From positions 640,001 through 704,000 of the forward strand of contig CAVQMO010000010.1 of the NCBI GenBank assembly GCA_963713605.1: a stretch of 64,000 nucleotides of DNA. Direction: 5' to 3'. Within the stretch, counting starts at the first letter, position 1; every line of letters begins with the position of its first letter. Source of the DNA: an uncultured Nitrososphaerales archaeon. GTDB taxonomy: Archaea; Thermoproteota; Nitrososphaeria; Nitrososphaerales; Nitrososphaeraceae. Position numbers and translations under genes: made by a program. Of the stretch, positions 6,201 to 48,502 are shown piece by piece. The notes below the pieces were generated by a model. It ran no database searches and had not been told where the DNA came from. It saw only the letters and a list, made by a program, of their open reading frames with translations.

Positions 6201-6632
6201 TTATTTTAGAACCAACACTTTAAGCAGTCCATCAACCAAGAGTTTTCCGAATCCGTCCTTAATGGTCGCCTTGATGGTAATAATTCTTGTAGATTCGCTT
6301 TTACCTGTAATTATGCCATCAATTATCACGTCTTGGTTCAGATAGCAAGGAGAAAGATGCTTGCCAGAATAGGAAAGCAGGAGTCCATTCTCTCCAGGTA
6401 GATGCATTCCTACCAAACGTGAGAAGAAAGATCCTATAAGCATACCGTGGCATATTCTGTGTTTGAATTCAGTTTTGCGAGCATGCTCTTCGTCCATGTG
6501 GATTGGCGCATAATCCCCGGTAATTTTTGCAAATTCATTGACCATTGATTCAGTAATACTAACTCTGAACGATTTTGTAAGGCCTTCCTCGATATCTTTC
6601 AGTGTGTATTGTGAGATGGTAGCTTCATCCAT
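6201..6632 (-). CDS. MaoC-family (R)-specific dehydratase, hotdog fold
   Basis: FAKITGDYAPIHMD and ICHGML motifs; overlaps the end of the ACP gene. Confidence 0.9.
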   Translation of the reverse strand: MDEATISQYTLKDIEEGLTKSFRVSITESMVNEFAKITGDYAPIHMDEEHARKTEFKHRICHGMLIGSFFSRLVGMHLPGENGLLLSYSGKHLSPCYLNQDVIIDGIITGKSESTRIITIKATIKDGFGKLLVDGLLKVLVLK

Positions 6633-6864
6633 TTAACGATGCACCGCGTACTGATAGTATATTTTTTATATCCTTTATCTTCTTGATGTTTAATAATTCA
6701 TTAAGAGTAAATTTTACATTAAATTTGGATTCAAGTTCCTCAAATAATATCAATCCACGGAATGAATCCCAATTTTCGATTGTTTCGGGTCCAGAATCAT
6801 CATCAATCTGAGAAACCTGCACCTCCATAATATTAGCAACAATATCCAAAAGATTGTTAGACAT
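6625..6864 (-). CDS. Acyl carrier protein
   Basis: 79 aa, acidic, phosphopantetheine site WDSF followed by ELESKFNVKF; translationally coupled to fkbH. Confidence 0.85.
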   Translation of the reverse strand: MSNNLLDIVANIMEVQVSQIDDDSGPETIENWDSFRGLILFEELESKFNVKFTLNELLNIKKIKDIKNILSVRGASLNG

Positions 6865-8616
6865 TAATCTTCATTTAGTTCAATATGACTTGTCTGTTTA
6901 ATAGGTACGTGATAAGTATACACCCATTGTTCCCCTTCCTTTTTGAACCCAAAGTTAGGTAGGAGATGCTCGCATGGTTTGTTTTTTTTAGTTGGTATGA
7001 ACTCAGCCTTGACCTTTACAACCCCTTCTTCCTTCGCCTTACTCAAGATATATCCAAGCATCACGTTCTCTATTCCTCTCCCCATTACTCTGCAGCTTAG
7101 CAGAAAAGTATCAATGAACCATTCTTTATCGGCGTGGTTTTTGTTGACAATATATACGCCGGTAATACCATTGTCGCCAAATTTGTCCTTGGTTTGCGCA
7201 CACCCGATCAATTTGGTTTGATCATGAGCAAACATTTGAACATCTTCTTCTTGATAACGATGAGTTGTAAGATTGAATTGATTGGTCTTGAGTGTGAGCT
7301 GAGCTATTCTCGGAATGGTGAAATCATTTGCCTTCTTCATCGTCACTTTGATTCCCAGTTGCTTAAGAAAATCTTCCAAATTCGAAGCAGAATTCTTTAA
7401 CTTAATTCTTTTCTGTTCCTGATTGTACATCTGACCTCTATTTTTATCTTCACTAGTCACGGCGAGGGTGTTAAAATCGTTAATTCTCATCAAGGTGGAG
7501 GCATATAAAGACGGATCATCAGGCAAATTGATCGTCATAACCTGTGGTATGGCCTTTAACATTAATTCTCTATTTACGGGGTCATCGTCAAAGTAGACAA
7601 TGCTCTCTAATCCAATATTTAATTCCTCTGCTATTTCTTTCATATTAGAAATTTTGTCGTTCCAGTTTATTTTTATAGTTGCAAAATTTTCTTCCCGAAG
7701 AACCATGTACGGATGTTCTCGAATAGCCCTTAAAGCCTCGTCTTCATTGTTTCTGCTGTTAATCGCAAGAATCAATCCTCTTTGATACAGTGCTAGAAGT
7801 ACACGCTGAAATTCCACGAACGCCATGCCAGGCGGTTTTAATGAAAGGTCAATTCGATCAAACCCATCCTCTCCAATTATGCCACCCCATAAGGTGTTAT
7901 CTAAATCAAGTACTATACACTTTCGATTTACTCCCAGGTTAGCTTTGACATATGCCATTAACTCCTCCGCTAGGTGCGGGATATGGCTCAAGGAGACCTT
8001 GATATCACCAACAAGAAATTGTCGATAATCTAAAACATTGACCTCGCCGTATTTGGACACAAAAGAATTGAAATCGAATAAGAACACTTGGGAGTCGCTT
8101 CTGAACACATCAGACAATTTGGCGTTGAAATCATATACCATGTCCCTAAGACCATATTCAGACTTGCCTTCACAGATGCCGTACGGTGAATACGTCGGGA
8201 TACTGCAATTCGTCAAGACCAATTTTGAACCGGTCCTATTTTTGAAGGCTCTGACTAAATTCACGAGATCTGCGACGCGTTTGTCAATGTAACTTCTCCT
8301 CTCGTTGACAGATATGGCATAAGGGGTATAGAAAAGAGTAGACATGACTGTTCTAGTGTCGATAATTATGAAAGTAATATCAGGAGAAAATTCATACAAT
8401 TTACTCGATTGATCAAGAATATCTTGATTGTATTGTCCATATCCGCAAATATAAGTCGCGCAGGTTATGTCGCTTTCTGCACATTTAACTCGAAGGGCTT
8501 CTTCTAAGCCATTAATCGTAAAACTGCTAAGAATAGCAATTTTGATTTTCTTTTGGAAAATCCGGCCCTCTATAGACCTTGCTTTCGCTATGAAGTACCG
8601 ATAGGTTAGGTTCCAC
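6864..8616 (-). CDS. FkbH-like HAD-IIIC glyceryl-ACP synthase/phosphatase with C-terminal GNAT-like domain
   Basis: KCIVLDLDNTLWGG, FDDDPVNRE, KTNQFNLTT and FLLSCRVMGR. The frame stays open upstream (KIAILSSFT); probable GTG start at 8616 with one indel. Confidence 0.9.
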
Positions 8617-8936
8617 CTGCGACTGCATTGACTTAGATTGTTTTGCGTTGAATTCTTATATAGATTCCGGAATAATTGACTAGGAGATTGGATCTATGTC
8701 AATACCATCTTATTCATAATTATATTGCGGTTATTATAGGTTCAACAGCGCATAGCTGAATAACTGAAGTTTTTTTATAGATTTCAAACTGAATTACAAT
8801 AAAGATGATTAATGACTTTAGGCGAGGTTTTGTACATCTCGCAAGTTAGAATTAGATTAACCCGAACGGCAAGTTAATCGAAACATCTTTACTGAATTGT
8901 CAATATTGCCATTTGTCATCTCGTTCCGCTTTACAA

Positions 8937-9935
8937 TTAGTGACCTATGCTTTTGGCAACGGTTGTTTCAGGTTTCACAAATGTATCCGCCTGAATGTGT
9001 CTTCCTGGCATGATAATGACAGATGTGCTAATAGTACAATTGTTTCCAACAAGTGCTCCAAAGCGGTCTACTCCAGTATCTATTGATTTGCCTTTCTCAA
9101 TTTCGTATGATATTTTTTGTTTAGTGGATAGAGCATTCAAGGTTGCCGCATAAGCTCCGAACCATACGTTTTCTCCTATGATGCTATCAACCAATATGTT
9201 CTGTTGTGATATTTTATCACTGCCTAATAGATAGGACCTAGCGATTTCACAGTTGAATCCTATCCTTGTTTTATCACCTAACATGCAGTTTCTAATCAGA
9301 GAGCTCATCCCGATGAAACTGCCTTTACTAATATACGTGGGTCCTTTTATTTTGCAAAAGTCATCGATTGTAACGTCATCTTCAATTATGCATGGACCAT
9401 CAATAACAGTAGATTTGGATATTGATGCATTTGGTGATATTGATGCATGCCTCACTTCATCTTGCAAAATCTTTTGAATTACATAATGAAGGTCCCAAGG
9501 ATATTTGATTGGATTTATTAAGATGTTTTTTTCTTTTTCTGATTGTAAATACCATATGGCTGAATTTAGTGGTATTTCCAAAAAATCCATATTCTCTTTG
9601 ATTGATATGCTGTAACTACGAGCAGCGGTACTATTATTGTCGATGTCATTAGATGAATTGCTATCATTAGATCTGATATCATCATCCTCATCCTCATATT
9701 CCTCCACATCAATTGCTGAAAAATTATCTTGAAGTAGCTTCAAAGTGGTACCGCATTTGGAAGGTACTTTAATTCTATGAATATTCTGAATCCTACTTGC
9801 TATGCTTACATTCCGAACTATTAGCGGTTGGTGGTGCAATACTTTAAGAGAAGAGACGGGGGTTTGGCTTTCATTCTCATTTGTATCTACAATTGAATGT
9901 AGAAAATGCTTAGATCGGCGAAAGATCAGCTCCAT
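8937..9935 (-). CDS. GlmU-like left-handed beta-helix acyltransferase with degenerate N-terminal domain (copy 1)
   Basis: YPWDL followed by hexapeptide repeats (IDGPCIIEDDVTIDDFCKIKGPTYI); no GxGTR nucleotidyltransferase motif. Confidence 0.7.
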   Translation of the reverse strand: MELIFRRSKHFLHSIVDTNENESQTPVSSLKVLHHQPLIVRNVSIASRIQNIHRIKVPSKCGTTLKLLQDNFSAIDVEEYEDEDDDIRSNDSNSSNDIDNNSTAARSYSISIKENMDFLEIPLNSAIWYLQSEKEKNILINPIKYPWDLHYVIQKILQDEVRHASISPNASISKSTVIDGPCIIEDDVTIDDFCKIKGPTYISKGSFIGMSSLIRNCMLGDKTRIGFNCEIARSYLLGSDKISQQNILVDSIIGENVWFGAYAATLNALSTKQKISYEIEKGKSIDTGVDRFGALVGNNCTISTSVIIMPGRHIQADTFVKPETTVAKSIGH

Positions 9936-10034
9936 ATTGCAATGTAGATATATACAAGTGGACTAGTTTAAATCAATTTGTGTTTACATAATCATGAATT
10001 GCCTTACTCATGTCTTGTATGGAGAAGTTATCTT
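8989..10034. repeat. 1046-bp direct repeat, copy 1
   Basis: Matches 13473..14518 at a constant offset of 4484; about 12 substitutions seen. Confidence 0.95.
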
Positions 10035-10576
10035 CTTTATGAAATAAAGTCTATCCTATCTATTTCATGATATGCGCCATTATCCCCTTTTAAATATATT
10101 ACAGTTACTTTATGGCTGGATCCGACTTCAAATTAGAAACTGTAAAGTAGTTTCTAGTCTCAATCAAAACCTCCCAGAATGCTAAAAAATATTATGGAGC
10201 TTCATAATCAGTATGTATTCTGCCTAAAATAATTAATTAAGATCTGATGTACTATCACAATTTTTAGCATTGTTGGAACCATTTCTAACAAGTGGTAATG
10301 ACGACTAGTAAGTTATGTAGCATTCTGAAGTACTGGTAGGAATAAATTTTGTCATTTAGCCGTTTAGATTGTCGATCATCTTGGATGAATCTATTAGAGA
10401 TTCACGGAAACAATATTGCTATACAAGCAGATAATATTCGCTTATGTCACCTCAGGATATTAAAGGATCATACTATGGATTGACTGATTCAATACAAAAG
10501 TGAATCTCATATCTACCAAAGTCGATTCATTTGGCTCGTAAACATTAAAAAGGAGGATGCCTATTACGCTATTAAA

Positions 10577-10687
10577 ATGTCAGCGGCAACTGAAATAAGA
10601 TGTCCACAATGCAATAGTCTTTATGTTGCACCAAGCCCTGAGAATAAGAATAGGCTCGAGTGCAAGGAATGCGGCACACTCTTCTGA
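10577..10687 (+). CDS. 36-aa zinc-ribbon microprotein
   Basis: MSAATEIRCPQCNSLYVAPSPENKNRLECKECGTLF*, two CxxC motifs. Confidence 0.7.
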   Translation: MSAATEIRCPQCNSLYVAPSPENKNRLECKECGTLF

Positions 10688-10936
10688 TAGGATTAATTAT
10701 TATCTGATAACTTGGCAGATAGCCAATTTTAATTGATTCAATCTAGGCGACTAATTCGATACTAAAGTGCTCAACCTCGTTCCAAACAACACCTATTTCA
10801 ACATTCTTTAATTGTGTTGTTCTGAACAAATGGCCAACTAAAACACTAGTATTCTGTATAATAGGAACGTTATCTTTATAATTCATTGAATATGTGGAAC
10901 ACTTTAATTACTCTATTTTACGAATGTGTAAAAGAA

Positions 10937-11065
10937 ATGGAAGAAATTCAAAAAGCAAATTGCTCTTCGTGTGGAACGTCATTTATGGGACAGAATGAAG
11001 CCACCATATATCCATCATGCTCTGCGGGGCAACAAGACCATTGACACAATGGCTGTGGCTGCTGA
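10937..11065 (+). pseudogene. Degenerate small Cys/His-rich metal-binding protein
   Basis: MEEIQKANCSSCGTSFMGQNEATIYPSCSAGQQDH*HNGCGC*; internal TGA. Confidence 0.4.
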
Positions 11066-11255
11066 CATTGACCTAAGCAGAGTTTAACATTCTTTTTTTG
11101 AATTACTAGTCTTTAGGGACTGAATGCGAGCCTTCGCAACTAAGGTAAGGGACTGATAATTTTCCGTGGGAAACATGTTTTTACTATATAAACTAATTGA
11201 ATTGACCTTGTCCCAAGAATTGGATATGTGCATTAGCGTATCCGAATACACCTGA

Positions 11256-11591
11256 TCATTTTCCACCATTTCCAATAGTATCTTCATAACATCCTCTAAC
11301 TTCTGCTCTTGTAGGTTCTTCTTTAAAGTAATTGGGCTCGGTGCTCGACAAACTATTGTCGACAACCTCTTCGATACAATCGTAAAATAGTGGAAGCTCA
11401 TTATTTAAGTTAGAATTCCCTGTATTGATGGGGATAAGCGGTACTGCCTCACCAAAAGCAATGCCTACTGTTGGGGTTTGAGATAGTGCGAATGCACCAA
11501 TTACCATCAGGACAGCAAAAATACCTGTCACCTTGGTCACAAGAAACACTTTTGATTCATTCATACTTATTGTCTTCCCAATAATTGCCAA
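11256..11591 (-). CDS. Small secreted or membrane-anchored hypothetical protein
   Basis: N-terminal hydrophobic segment and two Cys (FYDCI, VRGCY). Confidence 0.65.
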   Translation of the reverse strand: MAIIGKTISMNESKVFLVTKVTGIFAVLMVIGAFALSQTPTVGIAFGEAVPLIPINTGNSNLNNELPLFYDCIEEVVDNSLSSTEPNYFKEEPTRAEVRGCYEDTIGNGGK

Positions 11592-12355
11592 ATTGATTTA
11601 AGTGAGTTAAGATAGAATACACTTATCATTACTTCAGTGAAATATTATGTATCGAAAAAGCATCCATTTTACGAGCTTCATACGTAGCTGCCTTCGCCTC
11701 AATACTAGAGATCCAGTTTTAGCCACTATTCGTTACCCTATAATCTGTGCTGTAAATTCGATGCATGATAGAGGTATTTGGGAGAATATTCTTAGAAATC
11801 AGATTATCAAGGTATATACGGCAGCGTAGCTGAATCCATCACCATCCCCGACCAGCGAAATCTGGCTTGTGTCCTTCACGAAAGGTCTGGCTACTGACTT
11901 GAACTCAAGAAAATAAGCTTTGTAAATGCATCATTTGAATAACAAGTCGTACTCTAGTACATATTAACCCTATACCACTAGCGGTGCATATGACCATATT
12001 TAAAGAGTGACTGACTACATTAAGTACAGAATTCCGAATAACATGATACTTGCTATTTCTTTCTCTTGAGGTTCAGTTGGTTAATTCCAAAGTTGTAAAC
12101 AGCAGGTATATGACATCCTTGCCGTTATTTGTCCAGAAGCCTTTCTACGTTATATTGGTAACTTTATGATGTAAACATCGGTTCAGCACTCTTAGAGGTG
12201 CAATGAATATCCACATTGGATCACCGAATTTATATGACACTCTAACATAGGAATATCAATAACGTTAGACGTAATTGCTTATCATATTCATAAAGACGAT
12301 CTAAATTCAGCACGGTCAAGGATCTCATTATATAATCGATTGGTGTAATAATGCT

Positions 12356-12748
12356 GTGGTCAGAATATTCAAACGACGATATTACTATATTATAGCTGCA
12401 ATACTAATAGGAGGTACCGTTTTGTACTTTTACAATAGTTATATAAATAGACCCATGTTCGCGCTAGAATTAGATCCAACTAAGGATACTACAGATATCT
12501 CTGGAACGCAATACAGAATCAGACTTACAAATGTCGGTCAAAATGAAGTGACTGGAATACTAGTGAATTTGGGAGAAGATGACCTTCAGAATTTAACATC
12601 ACTTCAGCCAGGCCAATCATATTTTTTTTATCCCAAGCCAGACACTAGGCCTGCTATGATTAGCGTTATTACAAACGAAGGATTACATATTGAAGGCGAT
12701 TACAGGTCTCCAACAAAGGTTTTAGGATTACCTGGGGGAGGCAGATAA
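12356..12748 (+). CDS. Membrane-anchored hypothetical protein with beta-rich domain
   Basis: Single N-terminal TM helix; YRIRLTNVG and LQPGQS (CARDB/Ig-like pattern). Confidence 0.75.
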   Translation: MVRIFKRRYYYIIAAILIGGTVLYFYNSYINRPMFALELDPTKDTTDISGTQYRIRLTNVGQNEVTGILVNLGEDDLQNLTSLQPGQSYFFYPKPDTRPAMISVITNEGLHIEGDYRSPTKVLGLPGGGR

Positions 12749-12970
12749 TCACTGTAAAATCACATCCTTCTTTTGAATAAAAGTGAGGTTATTCTTTGGC
12801 CACCATCTGATGAACACAAAATTTCCACATAAAGATGGCCGTACCTGAGCCTGTCGGTTATAGATTATGGTATAAAAGGTTAGGAGCACTTTATCAAAGT
12901 TTACCCAAGTAGCCGGTGAACCTCATATTAATGGTTTTGCAGATGTTAGGAGATGAACGTATCTTATGCG

Positions 12971-13327
12971 CTAGTCAGTTATTGCGACTGCTATAGCAAG
13001 TGATTTGGTATGGGAAATTGATATCCGTGCTGAGATGATGTTCTTCCTTTTCCGATGAATAATAGCAGTGGGTTTTCCGTATTGTCCATGAATGATTTCT
13101 ATATCAATCATTTTTGTGGGTTTGTTCAAACATTTTAATATCGATTCCTTTGCAGCAAATATTCCAGCTAGATGAGGATACGGGTCAGAAAATTTGGCAC
13201 AATATTTCATTTCAGATTTTGTGAAAACTGAATGATAGAATCCTGTATTTCTGTCATTTAGTGGCTTGCTGCGAAATCGTTTGACTTCTATTATGTCTGT
13301 TCCAACATTCAAACTTTCAATAGTCAT
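12971..13327 (-). CDS. acpS: Holo-ACP synthase (4'-phosphopantetheinyl transferase)
   Basis: VGTDIIEVKRF, LAGIFAAKESILK, GKP and ISISHT motifs; 118 aa. Confidence 0.9.
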   Translation of the reverse strand: MTIESLNVGTDIIEVKRFRSKPLNDRNTGFYHSVFTKSEMKYCAKFSDPYPHLAGIFAAKESILKCLNKPTKMIDIEIIHGQYGKPTAIIHRKRKNIISARISISHTKSLAIAVAITD

Positions 13328-13417
13328 ATGAGGACGCTGTCAAGATATTGCGATTGATACATACAATATACTTTCGAAGTCTATAGCCTTTTATTTTAGT
13401 TCAACTGTCGTTTGACG

Positions 13418-14419
13418 CTAGTTCTTACTGCTTACTTCATATGTTTTCCATAAGGCTTGAATCATCGTATCAGCCTGAATGTGTCTTCCTGGCATGATAA
13501 TGACAGATGTGCTAATAGTACAATTGTTTCCAACAAGTGCTCCAAAGCGGTCTACTCCAGTATCTATTGATTTGCCTTTCTCAATTTCGTATGATATTTT
13601 TTGTTTAGTGGATAGAACGTTCACAGTCGCCGCATAAGCTCCGAACCATACGTTTTCTCCTATGATGCTATCAAGTATTATATTTTGATGTGATATTTTA
13701 TCACTGCCTAATAGATAGGACCTAGCGATTTCACAGTTGAATCCTATCCTTGTTTTATCACCTAACATGCAGTTTCTAATCAGAGAGCTCATCCCGATGA
13801 AACTGCCTTTACTAATATACGTGGGTCCTTTTATTTTGCAAAAGTCATCGATTGTAACGTCATCTTCAATTATGCATGGACCATCAATAACAGTAGATTT
13901 GGATATTGATGCATTTGGTGATATTGATGCATGCCTCACTTCATCTTGCAAAATCTTTTGAATTACATAATGAAGGTCCCAAGGATATTTGATTGGATTT
14001 ATTAAGATGTTTTTTTCTTTTTCTGATTGTAAATACCATATGGCTGAATTTAGTGGTATTTCCAAAAAATCCATATTCTCTTTGATTGATATGCTGTAAC
14101 TACGAGCAGCGGTACTATTATTGTTGATGTCATTAGATGAATTGCTATCATTAGATCTGATATCATCATCCTCATCCTCATATTCCTCCACATCAATTGC
14201 TGAAAAATTATCTTGAAGTAGCTTCAAAGTGGTACCGCATTTGGAAGGTACTTTAATTCTATGAATATTCTGAATCCTACTTGCTATGCTTACATTCCGA
14301 ACTATTAGCGGTTGGTGGTGCAATACTTTAAGAGAAGAGACGGGGGTTTGGCTTTCATTCTCATTTGTATCTACAATTGAATGTAGAAAATGCTTAGATC
14401 GGCGAAAGATCAGCTCCAT
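13418..14419 (-). CDS. GlmU-like left-handed beta-helix acyltransferase (copy 2)
   Basis: Near-identical to 8937..9935, with a different C-terminus. Confidence 0.7.
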   Translation of the reverse strand: MELIFRRSKHFLHSIVDTNENESQTPVSSLKVLHHQPLIVRNVSIASRIQNIHRIKVPSKCGTTLKLLQDNFSAIDVEEYEDEDDDIRSNDSNSSNDINNNSTAARSYSISIKENMDFLEIPLNSAIWYLQSEKEKNILINPIKYPWDLHYVIQKILQDEVRHASISPNASISKSTVIDGPCIIEDDVTIDDFCKIKGPTYISKGSFIGMSSLIRNCMLGDKTRIGFNCEIARSYLLGSDKISHQNIILDSIIGENVWFGAYAATVNVLSTKQKISYEIEKGKSIDTGVDRFGALVGNNCTISTSVIIMPGRHIQADTMIQALWKTYEVSSKN

Positions 14420-14518
14420 ATTGCAATGTAGATATATACAAGTGGACTAGTTTAAATCAATTTGTGTTTACATAATCATGAATTGCCTTACTCATGTCTT
14501 GTATGGAGAAGTTATCTT
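13473..14518. repeat. 1046-bp direct repeat, copy 2
   Basis: Matches 8989..10034. Confidence 0.95.
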
Positions 14519-14804
14519 TAATTCAATCCGATGTGTGACAAATGAGAAGGAATTAGGAAAATTAGAAGTGCTTATGATGCAATTCCCACAAACATTTGTA
14601 ATCAAGTTTGGATTGGCAATGCTGTCAAAACATAAGATTCCAGACAAATAAATTTCGAAATTGTTGGAGTCGAGTTTAGTTCCGTGCTGTCTAGAAGGAT
14701 AAAAGTCGAATTGTCTTATGTAAACGTATATTAAGAGGAGTTCAGCTATTTTTTGCACCTTTGACAAGGTACACGAAAAATCATGATATTTTAGGTGGTT
14801 TGAT

Positions 14805-15441
14805 ATGACAAAGAATCGAGTAATGATCGCATTTGGGGCGCACCCAGATGATATAGAAATCGGGATGGGAGGAACAGTAGCGAAATTGGCCAGAGTAGGT
14901 TATGATGTGAGACTAGTTATTGCTACTCTTCCAAACTTTGTAAAGACTGATACTAAAGAGGAGCGCAAGCAAGAATCTATTATGTCAGCAAAAGTTATGG
15001 GTTGTAAAACGCCAGAATTTCTCGATCTTAGTCCCGAAGAAATCGTTTTCAACAGAAAGTTTGTTACTCAAATTAGTAAGTTAATCCAAGAACTAAATCC
15101 TGAGGCTATATTTACTCAGTGGATCGGTGACACACACCAGGACCATCAATCATTAACGAGAGCAGTTGTGGCCGCAGGCTCGCGATTCTAACGATGTATT
15201 TATGTACGAAACCACTATTCCAGGAGGCATTAGTGAACATGCATTTAGACCTCAACTCTATGTAGACGTCACTGAAACATTAGAAATTAAAAGGAACGCA
15301 CTTGACTGTTTTGATTCTCAAAAAATCCGATGTGGACCTCTGTGGATAGATTCCCTGGTAGGAAGATGTTCTTACAGGGGGTATCAAATGAATGCAAAAT
15401 ACGCAGAAGCATTTGAAGTTATCAAGGTTTCCAAATGGTAG
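14805..15441 (+). CDS. PIG-L/LmbE-family de-N-acetylase (indel near 15175)
   Basis: AHPDDIEIG and DTHQDH metal-binding motifs; C-terminal half in ORF 15166..15441 (YVDV...KRNAL...SQ...AEAF). Confidence 0.88.
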
Positions 15442-15558
15442 AAACCTGAGACATCTTTACATTGAATTCTTGAATTCCTGGCTGACCATCTTAAGCCAGC
15501 ATAATTCAAAGCTGTTCGTAAATCTGGCACAATGAGCTACTGCATATAGTCAGCTCCG

Positions 15559-16107
15559 CTAGATCTTTCCTGCATCCTTAAGTCTGGATTTCATCCTTAA
15601 CTCACCTTCACTATACCTCTTTTTGTCGTTATCATCCTCAAAAATTAAACGGGGAACCATTGTAGGCTTCCCATACTTGTCCAAGGCTACCATTGTTACG
15701 AACGCAGTAGCCGCATGCACTTTGGTATTATCATCTAGGTCCTCAGCCTCGACGTTTACCTCGATTTCCATGGAGGATCTACGAACGTATGTTATTCTAG
15801 CAGAAATTATGAGTGCATTTCCTATAAAGACTGGTTTCAGGAATACCATTCGGTCTATGCTTGCAGTGACAACATTCGCCCTACCCGAATGTCTTTTAGC
15901 TACCAAACCTGCAATTAAATCAACATGTTTTAGTATTACTCCCCCAAAGACATTTCCTTTGGGGTTGGCATCAGAAGGTAACATCATCACAATCATCTCT
16001 GCTTCAGATTCCGTTGGACGTTTCCCCTTCTCCCCACTATTAACAGACAAGACTATAGATCCGATTTTATTATTACTATATATATTAAATACATAGAATT
16101 CATTCAA
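15559..16107 (-). CDS. Acyl-CoA thioesterase (hotdog fold, YciA-like); true start probably ~50 nt downstream of the ORF start
   Basis: PSDANPKGNVFGG, VTASIDRMVFLKPV and FVTMVALD. Confidence 0.9.
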   Translation of the reverse strand: MNEFYVFNIYSNNKIGSIVLSVNSGEKGKRPTESEAEMIVMMLPSDANPKGNVFGGVILKHVDLIAGLVAKRHSGRANVVTASIDRMVFLKPVFIGNALIISARITYVRRSSMEIEVNVEAEDLDDNTKVHAATAFVTMVALDKYGKPTMVPRLIFEDDNDKKRYSEGELRMKSRLKDAGKI

Positions 16108-20505: not shown

Positions 20506-21333
20506 TTATAACATTGTGATCAAATTAAATGAATTCTTCCATCCTTTAGGTCCTATCCCAGTAGACCGGACAAGATTTTTTATCTTTGAGTCGCACCATG
20601 AACCATTAGCCTTCTGGACTAGCACAGCAATGTCCATTAATTTTAGCATAGGTAGATCGTTTTCGCTGTCGCCCAATCCAACAAAAATAGTTCTCCTTGG
20701 TTGGTACTTTCGTCTGAAGAGATCAATTAGTATGCGAGTAGCCTTCCCTTTGTCATTTCCCTGTGTAATGTCACTGTACCTTCCCCCATGTATTACTTTT
20801 AGGCCAGTTCTTGTGCAGACTTTAGCTAACCTGCCCAAGTCAGATGGATCTATTTCTAAAATTGTTTCCCCATATTCACGTTTTGACATTCGCCTCGCGA
20901 AGGGCAATGGAATTTGTACCTTCTTTCTAATTTCGTTCAATGCCATATCTGTCGTCCCTTTAAAGTTAATCTGGAGCTCCTCTCTAATCCTTGCTAATCG
21001 CTTTCTTATTTCAATTGAATGACCCCCAATTTCAATAAGGCTATATCCGTTCCTTCTAGTACGTGGTACTGATATTTCAAATTCATCGAAATATCCGTCT
21101 GGGATCACCACCGCCCCTCCATTTTCGACTATGAAAGGGTCAGACAATCGAAGCTTATTTCTGATGTACTCCTGCTCACTGCGTGTCTTGGCAGAACAAA
21201 GAATGACTGGGATTCCCATATTTGCCAACTTCTTTACTAGCAGATCGGTCCCTTCAAATTTTCCGCTGTATATGTCTATAAGAGTGCCATCAATATCGGT
21301 GAAAATTATCTTTTGAACCGTAGAATTATTCAT
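20506..21333 (-). CDS. mpgP: Mannosyl-3-phosphoglycerate phosphatase family HAD-IIB hydrolase
   Basis: FTDIDGTL, CSAKTRSE, PFIVENG, REYGE, HGGRY, DKGKA and GLGDSENDLPML. Confidence 0.85.
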   Translation of the reverse strand: MNNSTVQKIIFTDIDGTLIDIYSGKFEGTDLLVKKLANMGIPVILCSAKTRSEQEYIRNKLRLSDPFIVENGGAVVIPDGYFDEFEISVPRTRRNGYSLIEIGGHSIEIRKRLARIREELQINFKGTTDMALNEIRKKVQIPLPFARRMSKREYGETILEIDPSDLGRLAKVCTRTGLKVIHGGRYSDITQGNDKGKATRILIDLFRRKYQPRRTIFVGLGDSENDLPMLKLMDIAVLVQKANGSWCDSKIKNLVRSTGIGPKGWKNSFNLITML

Positions 21334-25195: not shown

Positions 25196-25930
25196 TTTTG
25201 GTAATCTCTGTGAACTATATACAATCCAGAATATAACCAAATTGGAATTTTCTTCTCTAACTGAAATAACTGAAATATATTGAACTAATGATCTTTTTGA
25301 GAACCTCTATATATTAAGCGTCAACTATTTACACGCTGTAGTCTGCCTTGTTTTCAAGATAGCGCGATTTTCTGGATATTTTAGGTGTCTTTAACTTCGA
25401 CAGAGAAGGATTCAACACTAAAGCGAGATACATACCATTGCATTTCATTATGACATCCACCATGGATGAGGGCGTAAGAGATGATTCTCGACTATCGTTT
25501 TCATTCTCGAACATTAGAATTAGTTCCTAAAATGACTATTACGAATGCCCACGGGGAAGGAGATGAAGATAAAGATGAATTGGGATTCGCGATGCAAAGA
25601 ATTCAATTTTCGTAAAATCGGTTAGATCATGCTATTACTGTCATTCGACTGGTATTGTCGAAGCCTTAAAGAGGTAACAGATGAAAAATATGAGCTTCTC
25701 GTATTTTAACAATCTTATAGGTAATTCCAGAATCCCTTTGGTTTCCAGAATGTAATAACAAATAGTTCAAAAAATGAAGGGACTGCTTTTGGAAGGAAGA
25801 AAATAAAGATAAGTAGCATTATCTGCATTTGCAATCACACATCGATTCAAGTAATGCGGTATGGTTACGGATACAAGACTATGGAAGACATATAGCTAAA
25901 ATATATAAGCCATAGCGTTCGGTCAAATTT

Positions 25931-28900
25931 GTGCATATTAGAGGGACGTCTTTACAAACATATTTGTTTCTAACAATGGCGTTGGCCGCGATAGGCCTCC
26001 AGGTCGTGCCAATAAGCCAAATTTTCGCCACATCATCAGCTGGCTCAGCATCTGCAGCGTCGGGAGGATCAGCTTCAGCAGCTGCTGCAGCTGCGGGTGA
26101 CGCGGCTTCAGCAGCTGCTTCAGCGGCAGGTGCCTCATCAGGCAGCGGCTGCATCAGCAGGCGAGGCAGCATCTGCAGCAGCCTCGTCAACAGGAGAAGG
26201 ATCAGCCGCTGCCTCAGCGGCGGGTTCTTCCGGACAACGTTCAGCCGCAGCTGCGGCAGCAGCAGCAGGATATTCAGCTGCAGCGGCTGGAGCAGCCTCG
26301 TCCAACGGTGATGCAGCCGCGGCAGCGGCAGCCGGTGCATCAGCCGCGGGCAGCGGCAGCCGGTGCATCAGCCGCGGCAGCGGCAGCAGCGGGTTCAGCC
26401 GCTGCAGCCGCGGCCGCTTCTGGCTACGAGTCGGCTGCTGCTGCCGAGCAGCAGCAGCGGCAGCTGGCAACGGTGGTTCAGCAGCTGCAACGGCGAGCAG
26501 CAGCCGGGGGAGCTGCTGCAGGTGTAGCAGCTGCCGACGGTTATTCTGCTGCGGCCGCAGCTGCAGCAGCGTCTGGTCGGTCTGGTGCTGCCGCCGCAGC
26601 AGCCGGCAGCACAGGAGCTTCATCAGCCGCTGCCGGTTGTTCAGCTGCAGCCGCAGCTGCAGCAGCTAACGGTGCGGCCGCTGCGGCCGCTGCCGCAGCT
26701 TCTTCCGGCGGTGGATCGTCTTCTGCAGCTGCCGCAGTAGCAGCGGGCCAAGCAGCAGCCTCAGCAGCAGCATCAGGTGGGTGTTCCGTATCAGCAGCTG
26801 CAGCGCAGCAAGTGCAGCATCTTCGGCAGCCGCAGGAGGTTCAGCCCGCCGCAGCCGCAGCCGCAGGAGGTTCAGCCGCCGCAGCCGCAGCTGCAGCAGC
26901 CACAGGAGGTTCAGCCCGCGCAGCCGCAGCGGCAGCAGGGGCGGCTTCGGCAGCTGCCTGCAGCTGGCGGATCATCTGCTGTTGCAGCTGCCGCAGCAGG
27001 TGGCGGCGCAGCCGGGGCGGCAGCTGCTGCAGCCGGGAGTGCAGGCAGCAGCAGCAGCATCGAGCTCAGGGCTTAGCGGCGCAGCGGGCAGCAGCAGCAG
27101 CTGGTGGGGCAGCCGCAGCGGCAGCAGGCAGCAGCTGGTCGGGCAGCCGGAGGCAGCAGCAGCCTCAGCAGGTGGCGGTGCAGCCGCAGCAGCAGCAGCG
27201 GCAGGAAGTGCAGCCGCAGCCGCAGCTAGTGGTAGTGGTGCAGCAGCCGCAGCAGCAGCAGGAAGTGCAGCAGGTGCAGCAGCAGCCGCAGCTGCAGCAG
27301 GTAGCGGCGGTGCAGCAGCAGCCGCAGCCGCGGCTGGCCAGGCGAGCAGCCGCAGCCACAGCATCAGCCGGTGGCTCTGCAGCAGCAGCAGCAGCAGCAG
27401 GTGCAGCAGCATCAGCCGGAGCAGCAGGTAGTTCAGCCGCAGCTGCAGCAGCAGGTAGTGGTGCAGCCGCAGGAGCAGCTGCAGCGGGTGGTGGTGCAGC
27501 CGGCAGCAGCCGCAGCAGCTGGTAATGCAGCTGCTGCAGCAGCATCATCAGCCGGTGAGGATGATGCAGTCAGCGAGCAGCCTCAGCAGCAGCATCCGGT
27601 GGTGGTGCAGCGGCAGGTGCAGCAGCAGGTGAGGGCAGCAGCCGCAGCAGCAGCATCCGGTGGTGATGCAGCAGCAGGTGCAGCAGCAGCCTCAGCAGCC
27701 GCAGGCAGCAGCCTCATCAACAGGCAGTGAATCAGGCAGCAGCAGCAGCAGGCAGCATCATCAGCCGGTGAAGATCCAGCAGCAGCCGGCAGCAGCAGCA
27801 GCAGGGCAGTCAGGCAGCAGCAGCAGCAGGAGCGGGTGAAGCGCGGCAGCAGGAGCAGTAGCAGCGGGTGAAGATCCAGCCGCAGCAGCTGCCCTCAGCA
27901 GCTGAAGAAAATGGAGGCTCAGCAGCCGCCGCAGCTGCCGCAGGTCAAGCGAGCAGGACAGTCAGGCAGCAGGCAGCAGCAGCAGCAGAAGGAGCTGGTC
28001 AGGATCCAGCAGAAGCCGGCAGCAGCTGCAGCAGCGGCAGGCGCATCGGAACCTGAACAGGCGCAAGAAAGCGCTGCCTGGGGCAGCTGGAGCTGCGCAG
28101 ACTCTTCAAACTCAGATCGAAGAGCCTACTGAAGAAGGAGCGCCACAGCAGCAACAACAACAATTAGCACCTCCAGAAGACGGTGTAGCACCTCCAGAAG
28201 ACGGTGTAGCACCTCCAGAAGATGATGAACAACAGCGGCAATTATTGGCCCCAGATGGTGCGCACTCCAGAAGGGGGCAGCTCCAGAGTGTGATCCTCCT
28301 GAAGTACTAAATCCAGATACAAATCAATGCGAAGCTCCTCAAGAAGCAGCTCCAGAGTGTGATCCTCCTGAAGTACTAAATCCAGATACAAATCAATGCG
28401 AAGCTCCTCAAGAAGCAGCTCCAGAGTGTGATCCTCCTGAAGTACCTAAATCCAGATACAAATCAATGCGAAGCTCCTCAAGAAGCAGCTCCAGAGTGTG
28501 ATCCTCCTGAAGTACTAAATCCAGATACAAATCAATGCGAAGCTCCTCAAGAAGCAGCTCCAGAGTGTGATCCTCCTGAAGTACTAAATCCAGATACAAA
28601 TCAATGCGAAGCTCCTCAAGAAGCAGCTCCAGAGTGTGATCCTCCTGAAGTACTAAATCCAGATACAAATCAATGCGAAGCTCCTCAAGAAGCAGCTCCA
28701 GAGTGTGATCCTCTGAGGACTAAATCCAGATACAAATCAATGCGAAGCTCCTCAAGAAGCACTCCAGAGTGTGATCCTCCTGAAGTACTAAATCCAGATA
28801 CAAATCAATGCGAAGCTCCTCAAGAAGCAGCTTCCAGAGTGTGATCCTCCTGAAGTACTAAATCCAGATACAAATCAATGCGAAGCTCCTCAAGAAGCAG

Positions 28901-29523
28901 CTCCAGAGTGTGATCCTCCTGAAGTACTAAATCCAGATACAAATCAATGCGAAGCTCCTCAAGAAGCAGCTCCAGAGTGTGATCCTCCTGAAGTACTAAA
29001 TCCAGATACAAATCAATGCGAATCTCCTCAAGAAGCAGCCTCCAGAGTGTGATCCTCCTGAAGTACTAAATCCAGATACAAATCAATGCGAAGCTCCTCA
29101 AGAAGCAGCTCCAGAGTGTGATCCTCCTGAAGTACTAAATCCAGATACAAATCAATGCGAAGCTCCTCAAGAAGCAGCTCCAGACGGTGGTGCGAGCCCC
29201 AGACGGTGGTGCAGGTCCACAGGCAGCAATTTGCAGCTCCAGAAGATACAACTCCTATCTGTACTCCTCCTGAGGTTTTGAACACTGACACCGGTGAATG
29301 CGAGGTTCCGGAACCGCCTCCAGGTGACAATGAAGCAGTAGCTCCTCAAGTAGGCGTTCCCTCCTGTCTTCCTGGCGAGGTGTTCAATCCTGCCACAGGA
29401 ATATGCGAGGTTACTCCTCCAACTGAATCAGGCGATCAACCACCTAACAATGGTGGAATACCGTCAGGACCACCAGCGAATGGAGAAACTGATGGCGATG
29501 GAGACCAGCCAGACCAAGAGTGA
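25931..29523 (+). CDS. Large secreted poly-Ala/Gly/Ser repeat protein with C-terminal Cys-pair repeats; probably one gene broken by many indels
   Basis: Signal peptide ending QIFA, then about 2 kb of GCN-rich codons giving A(5-8)G blocks in alternating frames, an APPEDGV linker, 13x CDPPEVLNPDTNQCEAPQEAAPE and a Pro/acidic tail. Stop at 29523, followed by a T-tract. Confidence 0.7.
28277..29183 (+). repeat. 69-bp coding tandem repeat, 13 copies
   Basis: Unit GCAGCTCCAGAGTGTGATCCTCCTGAAGTACTAAATCCAGATACAAATCAATGCGAAGCTCCTCAAGAA, without spacers. Confidence 0.95.
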
Positions 29524-46434: not shown

Positions 46435-46754
46435 ACTCTATTTCACGGTCAGTACCTATTAACCTTTGAATTGATTGACTTCAATCCATTAGAATCGGAA
46501 GCGACCCTTGCACAAGAAGTTAATGGGGATTGGGCTAGTAGGGTGACTCCTTCATGTTTGGGTTCTGGATGAGCCACAGAAAATATCACATGGGGAATGT
46601 CAGTCTAAAGATAAATCAGTGTCAATAGTTACACTTATGGGTGTATCCATGAATAAGATACCGATATATGACATTTATACGTATAATTCCCATAGTACAT
46701 TCGTCAGTGAAATACGTTCTTGACTCTTATATACACTAATCTATGTGAATAAGC

Positions 46755-48502
46755 GTGCTTAAAAGAAATTCTGTACAATCGTATATTCTAATAGCTATAG
46801 CACTTGGAGCAATAACACTCCACATAGTGCCAACGACTCAGGTATTCGCAAATTCTTCTGATTCAACAGAAGCAGCCGCAGCTGCCGCAGCAGCAGGTGA
46901 AGCAGCTGCAGCAGCTGCAGCGCAGCTGGTGGATCTGCAGCGCCGCGAGCAGCAGCTGGTGATGCAACGCAGCAGCAGCGGCAGCAGCTTCAAAGTATGG
47001 CTCGGCAGCCTCAGCAGCGGCAGCTGGACATGCAGCGCAGCAGCGGCAGCTGCGAGCAGGTGGATCAGCCAGCAGCGCAGCAGCAGCAGGTAGCGCAGCA
47101 GCCGCAGCAGCAGCAGGCGGATCAGCCGCAGCAGCAGCAGCGAGCAGGCAGTGCAGCAGCAGCAGCAGCGGCCGCAGGCAAATACGGCTCAGCCGCAGCC
47201 GCAGCAGCCGGCAGCGAGCAAGCGGTAGCGGTGCTTCAGCAGCCGCAGCGACGAGCAGCCGGCAAGGGAGCAGGCAGCAGCAGTAGGAGCAGCAGCGGGC
47301 TATTCCGCAGCTGCTGCTGCCGCCGCATCCTCTTCGGGACACCACGGATTAGCAGCAGGCAGCAGCTGGAGCCGCGTCAGGTGGAGGAGCAGCAGCAGCC
47401 GGAGCAGCAGCAGGCGGATCAGCCGGAGCGAGCAGCAGGAGCAGGCAGTGCGAGCAGCGAGCAGCAGCAGCTTCAGGAGGAGGTTCTGCAGCAGCAGGAG
47501 CAGCAGCAGGTAAGGGAGCAGCCAGCAGCGAGCAGCCACGCGGCAGGCGGATCAGCCGGCAGCAGGCAGCAGCAGCCGGTGGTGGAGCAGGAGCAGCAGC
47601 TCGCATCAGGTGGTTCTGCGGCAGCAGCGCAGCAGCCGGTCGGTGGAGCAGCAGGCAGCAGCGCAGCTTCAAGCGGAAATGGTGGTGCAGCGCAGCCCGC
47701 AGCCGCCTCAGGTGGCGACAATGGCTACAAGAACTATGGCAAAGACAAAGACAGTTCTTCAGCAGCTGCAGCTGCAGCAGCATCCGAAGATTCAGGACGC
47801 AGCAGCCGCAGCAGCAGGTGATGCAGCAGCAGCAGCAGCATCAGCAGCAGGTGGTTCTGCAGCAGCCGCAGCCGCGAGCAGGCGATGGAGCTGCAGCCGG
47901 GGCAGCGCGAGCCGGCGGAAACGGCGGATCTGCAGCGCAGCGCAGCCGCCTCAGGTGGCGACAATGGCTACAAGAACTATGGCAAAGACAAAGACAGTTC
48001 TTCAGCAGCCAGCCGCAGCGCAGCAGGAGCATCCGAGGATTCAGCAGCCGCAGCAGCCGGAGCATCCGAAGATTCAGCAGCGCACAGCGGCAGCAGCAGG
48101 CGCATCCGAAGATTCAGCAGCGCAGCAGCAGCAGCATCCGAAGATTCAGCAGCCGCAGCCGCAGCAGCAGGTGATGCAGGAGCAGCAGCAGCAGCTGCAG
48201 CAGGAGCCAGCGACGATCATGGTAAGAAGAGGTCTGGAGATGACAGCTCTTCAGCAACCGCAGCAGCGCAGCAGGAGATGACGCAGCAGCAGCAGCCGCA
48301 GCAGCTAGTGATGACAAAGATGAGAAGAAGAAGGGTGACCACAATGACGGAAAAGGATCTAAGGATGAATCTAGCAACAGATCTAATGATGGCGGTGAAG
48401 CGAATGATGGCGATAGCGAAGAAAGCAGTGGCGGCGAGGGGAGAAAGCAGTGGCGTCGAAGAAAGCAGTAGTAGTAGCAGCAGCAACAGCGACGACGAAT
48501 AA
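46755..48502 (+). CDS. Second secreted poly-Ala/Gly/Ser repeat protein with charged tail; one gene broken by indels
   Basis: Signal peptide homologous to that at 25931, A(5-8)G blocks, D/E/K/S-rich C-terminus; stop at 48502 followed by a T-tract. Confidence 0.7.

Follow-up and report, generated by a model that had tools for sequence, protein, structure and literature searches.

The DNA analysed here, called the window throughout, is a stretch of 64,000 nucleotides from an uncultured Nitrososphaerales archaeon (GenBank assembly GCA_963713605.1, contig CAVQMO010000010.1, positions 640,001 to 704,000; G000:C10:640001-704000 in our numbering). It carries the genes fkbH, acp, maoC and acpS together with two paralogous left-handed beta-helix (LbH) genes derived from GlmU, and these six genes form a conserved cassette that lacks a ketosynthase. 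On balance, we think that the cassette probably builds a three-carbon (C3) group on an acyl carrier protein (ACP), which the LbH proteins then put on an amino sugar; a surface glycan would be the destination, although product and acceptor are both deduced from gene content. The host is a soil ammonia-oxidising archaeon (AOA), whose genome (G000) amounts to 4.09 Mb in 15 contigs and is 87% complete. In the following, "family" stands for the Nitrososphaeraceae, g1 for the genus of G000 and g11 for a second genus that bears the cassette; the sister family is presumably the Nitrosopumilaceae. The cassette genes are:

6201..6632, minus strand: maoC, (R)-hydratase/dehydratase hotdog protein, 143 aa (PF01575, 57.5 bits; dN/dS 0.07)
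6625..6864, minus strand: acp, stand-alone acyl carrier protein, 79 aa, with Ser34 in W-D-S-F (dN/dS 0.06-0.13)
6864..8628, minus strand: fkbH, with FkbH_N, HAD-IIIC and C-terminal domains (TIGR01686, 309 bits; cut-off 146.65)
8937..9935, minus strand: LbH copy A, GlmU-derived beta-helix protein, 332 aa, with Gln at the position of His308 of the Sulfolobus tokodaii protein ST0452 and an A-type tail
12971..13327, minus strand: acpS, AcpS-type phosphopantetheinyl transferase (PPTase), 118 aa (PF01648, 55 bits)
13418..14419, minus strand: LbH copy B, near-identical paralogue, 333 aa, directly upstream of acpS, with His244 (equivalent to ST0452 His308) kept and a B-type tail

All genes named in a first-pass annotation of this DNA are present among its open reading frames (ORFs), and the translational coupling that it described is real: fkbH and acp share 1 nt at stop and start, and acp and maoC share 8 nt. 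The acpS gene lies 4.3 kb from this trio and encodes the sole AcpS-type transferase found in G000, which holds one copy each of fkbH, acpS and an acp and maoC of this kind. The true start of fkbH is the ATG at 8628, and the orthologue in the related genome G105 has 587 aa. Its FkbH_N domain (PF21211) scores 51.6 bits against a cut-off of 27, and both the HAD motif (DLDNT; DLD-N/D) and the LSCR motif with its SCR Cys are kept in 11 of 11 aligned rows; we take the DxD motif and this Cys to be catalytic. The ACP stays just below the Pfam cut-off (PF00550, 18.2 versus 20.8 bits), its orthologue in locus L064 passes with 24.4 bits, and a profile built from 18 orthologues, in all of which Ser34 is invariant, matches 19 solved ACP sequences (best E 5.8e-9). 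The closest solved relatives of MaoC are (R)-enoyl-CoA hydratases (E 7e-15). MaoC retains the GD-x-x-P-x-H and HGM motifs of Asp/His hydratases, presumably the catalytic residues, and the motif Asn is replaced in most family copies. In genome G023 (locus L028, 3234-3530), an additional ACP copy in inverted orientation lies shortly after maoC.

In agreement with the first-pass annotation, ketosynthase or FabH-like domains (PF00109, PF02801, PF08541) and condensation domains gave no match in G000, an 87% complete and frameshift-rich assembly. The positive controls thiolase and phosphoglycerate kinase (PGK) were found. However, PF08541 also missed a HMG-CoA synthase in G000, though three archaeal controls show one. 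Hence, this null result is imperfect, because the genome is incomplete and rich in frameshifts and because one profile failed on an expected enzyme. Methoxymalonyl-ACP cassettes have the composition FkbGHIJK; no linked dehydrogenases or O-methyltransferase of such a set were seen among the ORFs of the locus, to which this search was confined. The only short-chain dehydrogenases/reductases (SDRs) elsewhere in G000 are 21-31% identical. As the required genes were not found, we rejected a fatty acid synthase, a polyketide synthase (PKS), a methoxymalonyl cassette and a complete lactyl cassette as descriptions of the locus.

The arrangement of the core is conserved. In the family, 15 of 16 loci show the order fkbH-acp-maoC and the sixteenth is cut inside fkbH; a GlmU-derived LbH gene is located no more than 1.4 kb from fkbH in 13 of the 16, the contigs of the remaining three being cut upstream. 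Genes for SDR or VOC proteins occur in 0 of these 16 loci. Outside the family, all 15 loci contain ACP and AcpS genes within 2.1 kb of fkbH, and the flanks hold a small LbH protein (14/15) and a CE4 deacetylase (14/15; 12 of the DUF3473 type, two of another type). A tailoring slot directly after acp or nearby is occupied by MaoC in ten loci and by a VOC protein resembling methylmalonyl-CoA epimerase in five, and never by both. An SDR was found in three, always alongside MaoC; the SDR query left out one SDR in L022, which stands amid cobalamin genes at a distance of 13 kb from fkbH. The neighbours in these lineages are glycosylation islands with GT2, GT4, DegT, RmlA, epimerases and NeuB, and in G220 the cassette adjoins the oligosaccharyltransferase STT3/AglB. 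Glycosylation islands have been described in marine AOA (bioRxiv 10.1101/2024.04.23.590705), where the accessible main text does not mention acyl genes. Across three lineages, the transferases and deacetylases that accompany this one core differ. Because these partners are unrelated to each other, removal of an N-acetyl group and re-acylation would be part of the cassette function, and this is our main argument. An MBOAT gene is found near the cassette in L076 (G567) and L067 (G449); in G567 it adjoins acpS, and LbH and deacetylase genes are missing. It is possible that MBOAT provides a fourth transfer route.

FkbH scores above the TIGR01686 cut-off in 14 of the 201 family genomes, where the genus of G000 accounts for nine (of 13 genomes), and in 16 of 401 genomes of the phylum, namely G000, 13 of 63 from the sister family and two from another class, that of G220, in which these two are the only ones among 201. 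A 59%-identical FkbH match, among the best 120 of 7,920 hits, carries the name Ca. Nitrosotenuis chungbukensis, which fits the assignment of the sister family to the Nitrosopumilaceae. AcpS matches are present in 14 of 16 FkbH-positive and 14 of 185 FkbH-negative family genomes. Like all co-occurrence figures given here, these are raw counts of genomes that include kin and are not independent, and they do not constitute statistical tests. Seven of the 14 matches in FkbH-negative genomes are long frames of 232-292 aa, and one such gene, when checked, proved to be of the Sfp type. Longer PPTase genes of this type, often beside a beta-helix protein, were seen in several family genomes (L138, L142, L144, L145, L149, L150, L153 and L155) and may point to a second, different carrier-protein system in soil AOA. 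Three further loci, L178 (G055:C47), L179 and L180 (G046, G057), contain LbH and acpS and no detected fkbH, reflecting either a lost core or an assembly that broke off at the repeat. The check by co-occurrence that the first-pass annotation had suggested thus shows fkbH, acp, maoC and acpS recurring together in loci of both families, and comparative genomics supports its proposal of a C3-acyl-ACP route outside PKS.

In a tree of 31 FkbH rows, the 27 archaeal proteins group together (100/98) apart from four bacterial plasmid proteins, which are too few to name a donor. G000 falls within its own genus, and the family members form one clade (100/100). The MaoC and AcpS trees broadly agree with this, the family clades not being strongly supported (92/82 and 80/81). 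G097 is an exception: this family member carries a cassette of the sister-family type (L032, G097:C55) together with GT2 and RmlA, and in the trees both its MaoC and its AcpS fall among those of the sister family, which suggests transfer or mis-binning as possible causes.

The two LbH genes belong to a 1.05-kb duplication:

8983-10034 and 13467-14518: copies 1 and 2 of the duplication, each with 99 nt of upstream DNA that is identical in both and has a TATA-like box

The first-pass annotation had counted two LbH proteins. Both genes are present; they are not two different enzymes, being copies of one duplicated GlmU-derived gene. G105 also has the pair, and its copies end in the same two tails. 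In the first 720 columns of the alignment, identity between the paralogues of one genome is 99.9% and 99.6%, and the orthologues of G000 and G105 share 93.6%. In the last 60 columns this is reversed, with 91% identity for A-A, 93% for B-B and 51-53% for A-B. Because the bodies are more similar within than between genomes and the tails behave in the opposite way, the sequences indicate gene conversion of the LbH body with maintenance of two tails. Both tail types are also present in g11, and therefore the pair predates the split of g1 and g11. The duplication was considered as an assembly artefact and this was rejected, as both copies are found in G105 and nine fkbH contigs from relatives end inside an LbH gene.

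The C-terminal half of LbH aligns with the acetyltransferase domain of the GlmU-type protein ST0452 (E 4e-26; PDB 2ggo, 5z09), and the N-terminal half has no significant match, so that no nucleotidyltransferase domain was detected. With a full-length TIGR03992 score of 99 against a cut-off of 292 bits, LbH was rejected as a bifunctional archaeal GlmU; unlike ST0452, it is also duplicated with two tails. Copy B keeps the equivalents of His308 and Asn331 of ST0452. By contrast, copy A has Gln at the His308 site in G000, G105, G067, G084, G091 and G076, and His in G098, G036 and G085. Ten cassette-linked copies form a clade (100/100) in a tree that left out the partial LbH of G055. In six columns, five of them C-terminal, no linked copy has the residue that is fixed in all 13 unlinked homologues; one of these is a conserved Gly of the C-terminal motif, a region which we take to bind CoA. 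G000 keeps an ordinary LbH paralogue on C3 (C3:264334-265404) and another with ordinary motifs at C5:3-519. LpxA and LpxD are beta-helix enzymes that move long-chain acyl groups from ACP to a (de-N-acetylated) UDP-sugar in the lipid A pathway. The proposed LbH step resembles that of LpxD, but LbH scores are far below the family cut-offs (LpxD 38.9 versus 242.5; LpxA 29.5 versus 226). An AlphaFold model of copy B was poor (pLDDT 56), and a fold search with it gave no match at E<=0.001, ST0452 being on top; a search of the ESM Atlas with the N-terminal 160 aa returned only scores below 0.9.

From these features we propose the following pathway. In the first step AcpS would phosphopantetheinylate Ser34 of the ACP, a strong expectation from its family. 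FkbH would then load and dephosphorylate 1,3-bisphosphoglycerate to yield glyceryl-S-ACP, in line with the established chemistry of the family (accessible text of PMC8949500), the intact motifs and the presence of PGK. It is very likely that a C3-ACP is formed in this way. MaoC would dehydrate glyceryl-ACP to pyruvoyl-S-ACP, a step which we infer from the starter units of FR901464 and lankacidin, where a dehydratase-ketoreductase (DH-KR) pair converts glyceryl- to lactyl-ACP (He et al. 2014 as cited in the accessible text of PMC4765723), and from the exchange of MaoC for VOC between loci; that MaoC acts on the C3-ACP at all we regard as likely. Since no reductase was found in the 16 family loci, pyruvoyl would be the default product. 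The lactyl unit considered in the first-pass annotation would arise only if an unlinked reductase acted in trans. In the other lineages, a VOC protein would fit epimerisation to L-glyceryl, and MaoC with an SDR would fit lactyl. In the fourth step the acyl group would pass to an amino sugar through a beta-helix trimer, which may contain both copies A and B; LbH is, with similar likelihood, the transferase. The weakest step is the fifth, in which a deacetylase of the PIG-L family would be one source of the amine, most likely acting on a UDP-hexosaminuronate that the dehydrogenase-PIG-L locus of the family would produce; this assignment is tentative. As to the acceptor, the islands of the sister family bear out the suggested link to glycan genes, while nothing favours the lipid head groups that had also been named.

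Two neighbours and a small gene adjoin the cassette:

12356..12748, plus strand: unknown protein, 130 aa, with an N-terminal hydrophobic stretch and no Pfam match, adjoining acpS by synteny in g1 only
14805..15441, plus strand: PIG-L/LmbE-family de-N-acetylase (211 aa in G105), which may supply the free amine
15559..16107, minus strand: YciA-like (4HBT) acyl-CoA thioesterase, a neighbour outside the cassette

A single operon of 10 kb was rejected: the PIG-L gene runs in the other direction, and LbH copy A and acpS are about 2.9 kb apart, with unrelated DNA between them. The thioesterase had been suspected to be an unrelated neighbour and it is one: it occurs in 67 of 101 family genomes, beside the PIG-L gene only in g1 and not beside fkbH outside g1, and was therefore rejected as a cassette member. 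For the deacetylase, the same suspicion holds in part. The usual context of PIG-L in the family is a UDP-sugar dehydrogenase, PIG-L, an ATP-grasp protein, a BshC-like protein, PHP and a second ATP-grasp protein, sometimes with GT2 (L174, L173, L170, L184). In G000 these partners lie at C10:613161-619363, outside the window, without PIG-L and about 36 kb from the PIG-L gene. As a family-wide gene with its own conserved context, PIG-L has an only circumstantial link to the cassette, plausible but not specific. The two frameshift-split halves of PIG-L in G000, which were scored in place of an intact orthologue, reach 87.6 and 29.2 against the BshB1 cut-off of 182.5, and the genes that usually accompany PIG-L include no GT4, a genome-wide search for BshA not having been made. 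In g11 the cassette appears to sit inside the locus of dehydrogenase, PIG-L, ATP-grasp and BshC-like genes. The order, pieced together from short contigs of different genomes, is dehydrogenase, PIG-L, LbH, fkbH (G036; also G085) and BshC-like, ATP-grasp, LbH-B, acpS (G099, unpublished), and suggests that the cassette may have entered the dehydrogenase-PIG-L locus in g11.

Several findings weigh against the proposed pathway. ST0452, the closest solved LbH relative, uses acetyl-CoA on sugar-1-phosphates. The catalytic His is missing from copy A in six of the seven g1 genomes seen, and the equivalent of Tyr311 is absent from all LbH copies; His308 is essential in the ST0452 acetyltransferase (accessible text of PMC4909775). 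Basic residues are not enriched in linked compared with unlinked LbH, charge counts do not separate the two, and the clade of linked copies could reflect the shared ancestry of g1 and g11. Truncated GlmU-derived LbH proteins are found in 80 of 201 family genomes and PIG-L matches, weak paralogues included, in 161 of 201, both mostly without FkbH. Conversely, the FkbH-positive genome G031 shows no GlmU-type LbH match, and G008, G011 and G084 (79-97% complete, fragmented) show no PIG-L match. There is no glycosyltransferase near the cassette in G000 or its genus, and no linked reductase in the family loci. The sole solved N-glycan of an AOA (Ns. viennensis) carries no C3 acyl, and such a group was not detected in Np. 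piranensis either, as far as the accessible text of PMC12153357 goes; neither strain was checked for the cassette.

There is a rather unlikely alternative. The C3-acyl-ACP would be made as described, but the LbH pair and PIG-L would be bystanders of an insertion locus, and the acyl group would be passed to a lipid head group, to an unlinked transferase or into an ATP-grasp/BshC-like pathway whose product is a small soluble sugar-amide conjugate. The wide occurrence of LbH and PIG-L homologues without FkbH fits this view, as does the position of PIG-L, which normally follows a UDP-sugar dehydrogenase and faces ATP-grasp and BshC-like genes. Moreover, G015, which lacks FkbH, has an ordinary LbH in its dehydrogenase-PIG-L locus, and in g1 no glycosyltransferase is near. 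However, of the 15 loci outside the family, 14 have the core flanked by an LbH and a deacetylase that are both unrelated to those of the family, the LbH copies beside fkbH and acpS are fixed in two genera and have diverged from unlinked copies, and PIG-L stayed near the G000 cassette while its usual partners lie about 36 kb off. For these reasons we prefer transfer by LbH to an amino sugar.

Less likely again is that plain glyceroyl is delivered and that MaoC acts on CoA esters of the 3-hydroxypropionate/4-hydroxybutyrate cycle, for example in turning crotonyl-CoA into (R)-3-hydroxybutyryl-CoA, with a second donor for LbH as the result. The nearest solved MaoC relatives are indeed (R)-enoyl-CoA hydratases, and two LbH tail types could serve two donors. 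N-glyceroyl sugars are documented (accessible parts of PMC5378307, PMC3068675 and PMC11407970), and no N-pyruvoyl precedent was found in our searches of the open-licence literature. On the other hand, maoC overlaps acp and directly follows it in nearly all loci. MaoC and VOC are together in none of the 15 loci, and the SDR gained in three would rebuild the DH-KR logic of lactyl-ACP (accessible text of PMC4765723). Action of MaoC on the ACP-bound C3 unit therefore remains the preferred assignment.

A more elaborate version of the pathway is speculative and, in our estimate, improbable. The LbH pair would be a heterotrimeric, ACP-dependent sugar N-acyltransferase, in which one subunit supplies the catalytic His and one tail and the other a different tail, gene conversion keeping the bodies compatible. 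The enzyme would install N-pyruvoyl (an alpha-keto amide) on an archaeal surface sugar, and the tailoring slot would switch between pyruvoyl, lactyl and L-glyceroyl coats. If true, this would be the first working ACP pathway shown in AOA, combining an imported loader with a repurposed host enzyme.

The cassette has likenesses to several known systems. FkbH/OzmB-type loading in PKS and non-ribosomal peptide synthetase pathways (tetronate-type plasmid clusters) shares an FkbH above the cut-off with its HAD motif, an adjacent stand-alone ACP and a dedicated PPTase, as far as the accessible descriptions of those clusters allow comparison. Here, however, the search for ketosynthase, FabH-like and condensation enzymes found none, the cassette belongs to an archaeon and its partners modify sugars. 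With the Fr9/Lkc lactyl-ACP systems, in the portion of their description accessible, the cassette shares a glyceryl loader and an ACP with a hotdog dehydratase beside them, and three sister-family loci add an SDR. In contrast, the proteins here stand alone, 0 of 16 family loci have a linked ketoreductase and there is no PKS to receive the unit. The Cj1295 locus of Campylobacter jejuni presumably also holds FkbH and an ACP, which the accessible text of the paper on Cj1295 does not mention. For strain NCTC 11168, di-O-methylglyceroyl-pseudaminic acid (Cj1295) has led to a hypothesis of deacetylation followed by glyceroylation (accessible text of PMC3068675). As here, an N-acetyl group would be removed and a glycerate-derived acyl group put on a surface sugar, but our locus has other deacetylase and transferase folds and neither methyltransferase nor nonulosonate genes. 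N-glyceroyl sugars are also part of the S-layer glycans of the archaeon Methanoculleus marisnigri (PMC11407970) and of Tannerella forsythia, where the genetic basis is called unknown (PMC5378307; both papers accessible in part). This is the kind of product that the cassette family would explain, but MaoC predicts a modified rather than a plain glyceroyl group.

Contamination by bacterial DNA, raised earlier as a refuting explanation, or a decaying mobile cassette without present function is highly improbable: two apparent frameshifts, a patchy distribution and a tRNA-Arg with an integrase-like fragment 5-6 kb away could be read in this way, but neither read contigs nor relatives show the frameshifts, collinearity with G105 extends through nirK (at window 16207), the GC content of the cassette (34-39%) matches that of the contig (39%), FkbH lies in a genus clade within the archaeal clade, as the phylogeny asked for by the first-pass annotation now shows, and all genes are under purifying selection (dN/dS 0.06-0.24). 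The frameshifts consist of one extra base at 8598 in fkbH and one at 15177 in the PIG-L gene. The former is absent from contigs of four of seven sequencing runs (X1, X5, X8, X9) and the latter from contigs of three of seven (X1, X8, X17), some runs not covering the positions, and the G105 orthologues are intact at both. Hence, both are assembly errors. Of 19 orthologues compared, 5 are broken into different frames in this assembly. Taken with the read contigs, the intact relatives and the dN/dS values, this led us to reject pseudogenes. Contigs of two RNA runs from one study span pieces of maoC, fkbH, LbH, acpS and PIG-L; we did not count them as evidence of expression, because non-coding DNA at 10795-11003 is covered too and carry-over of DNA is possible. 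A bacterial promoter scan was at chance (47 sites versus 41.6 +/- 6.2 in shuffles).

To our knowledge, most archaea lack the ACP cofactor system. A soil AOA genus holds a complete one under purifying selection, and it recurs in glycosylation islands of 13 of 63 sister-family genomes. A few archaea have acquired ACP machinery by transfer, with no function given in the accessible text of PMC3533463, and searches of the open-licence literature yielded no publication that deals with FkbH or ACP in AOA or connects them with archaeal glycans. If LbH transfers a C3 unit as proposed, the cassette would supply candidate genes for short hydroxy- or keto-acyl decorations of sugars, and the acyl group would be predictable from one swappable gene. 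The cassette proteins are all small and soluble.

Elsewhere in the window, at 789-1250, a tRNA-Arg(GCG) is followed by what reads as an integrase-like fragment, with small ORFs over roughly the next 5 kb; this stretch beside the cassette is possibly an integration hotspot. A HAD-family phosphatase (Pfam Hydrolase_3) at 20506-21333 presumably resembles mannosyl-3-phosphoglycerate phosphatase. Two GC-rich, frameshift-broken low-complexity genes (25900-27700 and 46750-48500) are rich in Ala and Ser, with long repeat runs of the Ala-Ala-Ala-Ala-Ser/Gly type, and possibly encode secreted or surface proteins. ORF fragments at 28428-29523 contain tandem repeats of about 23 aa that include Cys and are rich in Pro, Glu and Asp. 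Between 30114 and 45709, genes labelled from their translations as an isochorismatase-like hydrolase, an amidase, a nucleoside-type ABC transporter, FdrA/DUF1116-like proteins and a carbamate kinase-like protein form what looks like a cluster for catabolism of pyrimidine or purine derivatives.

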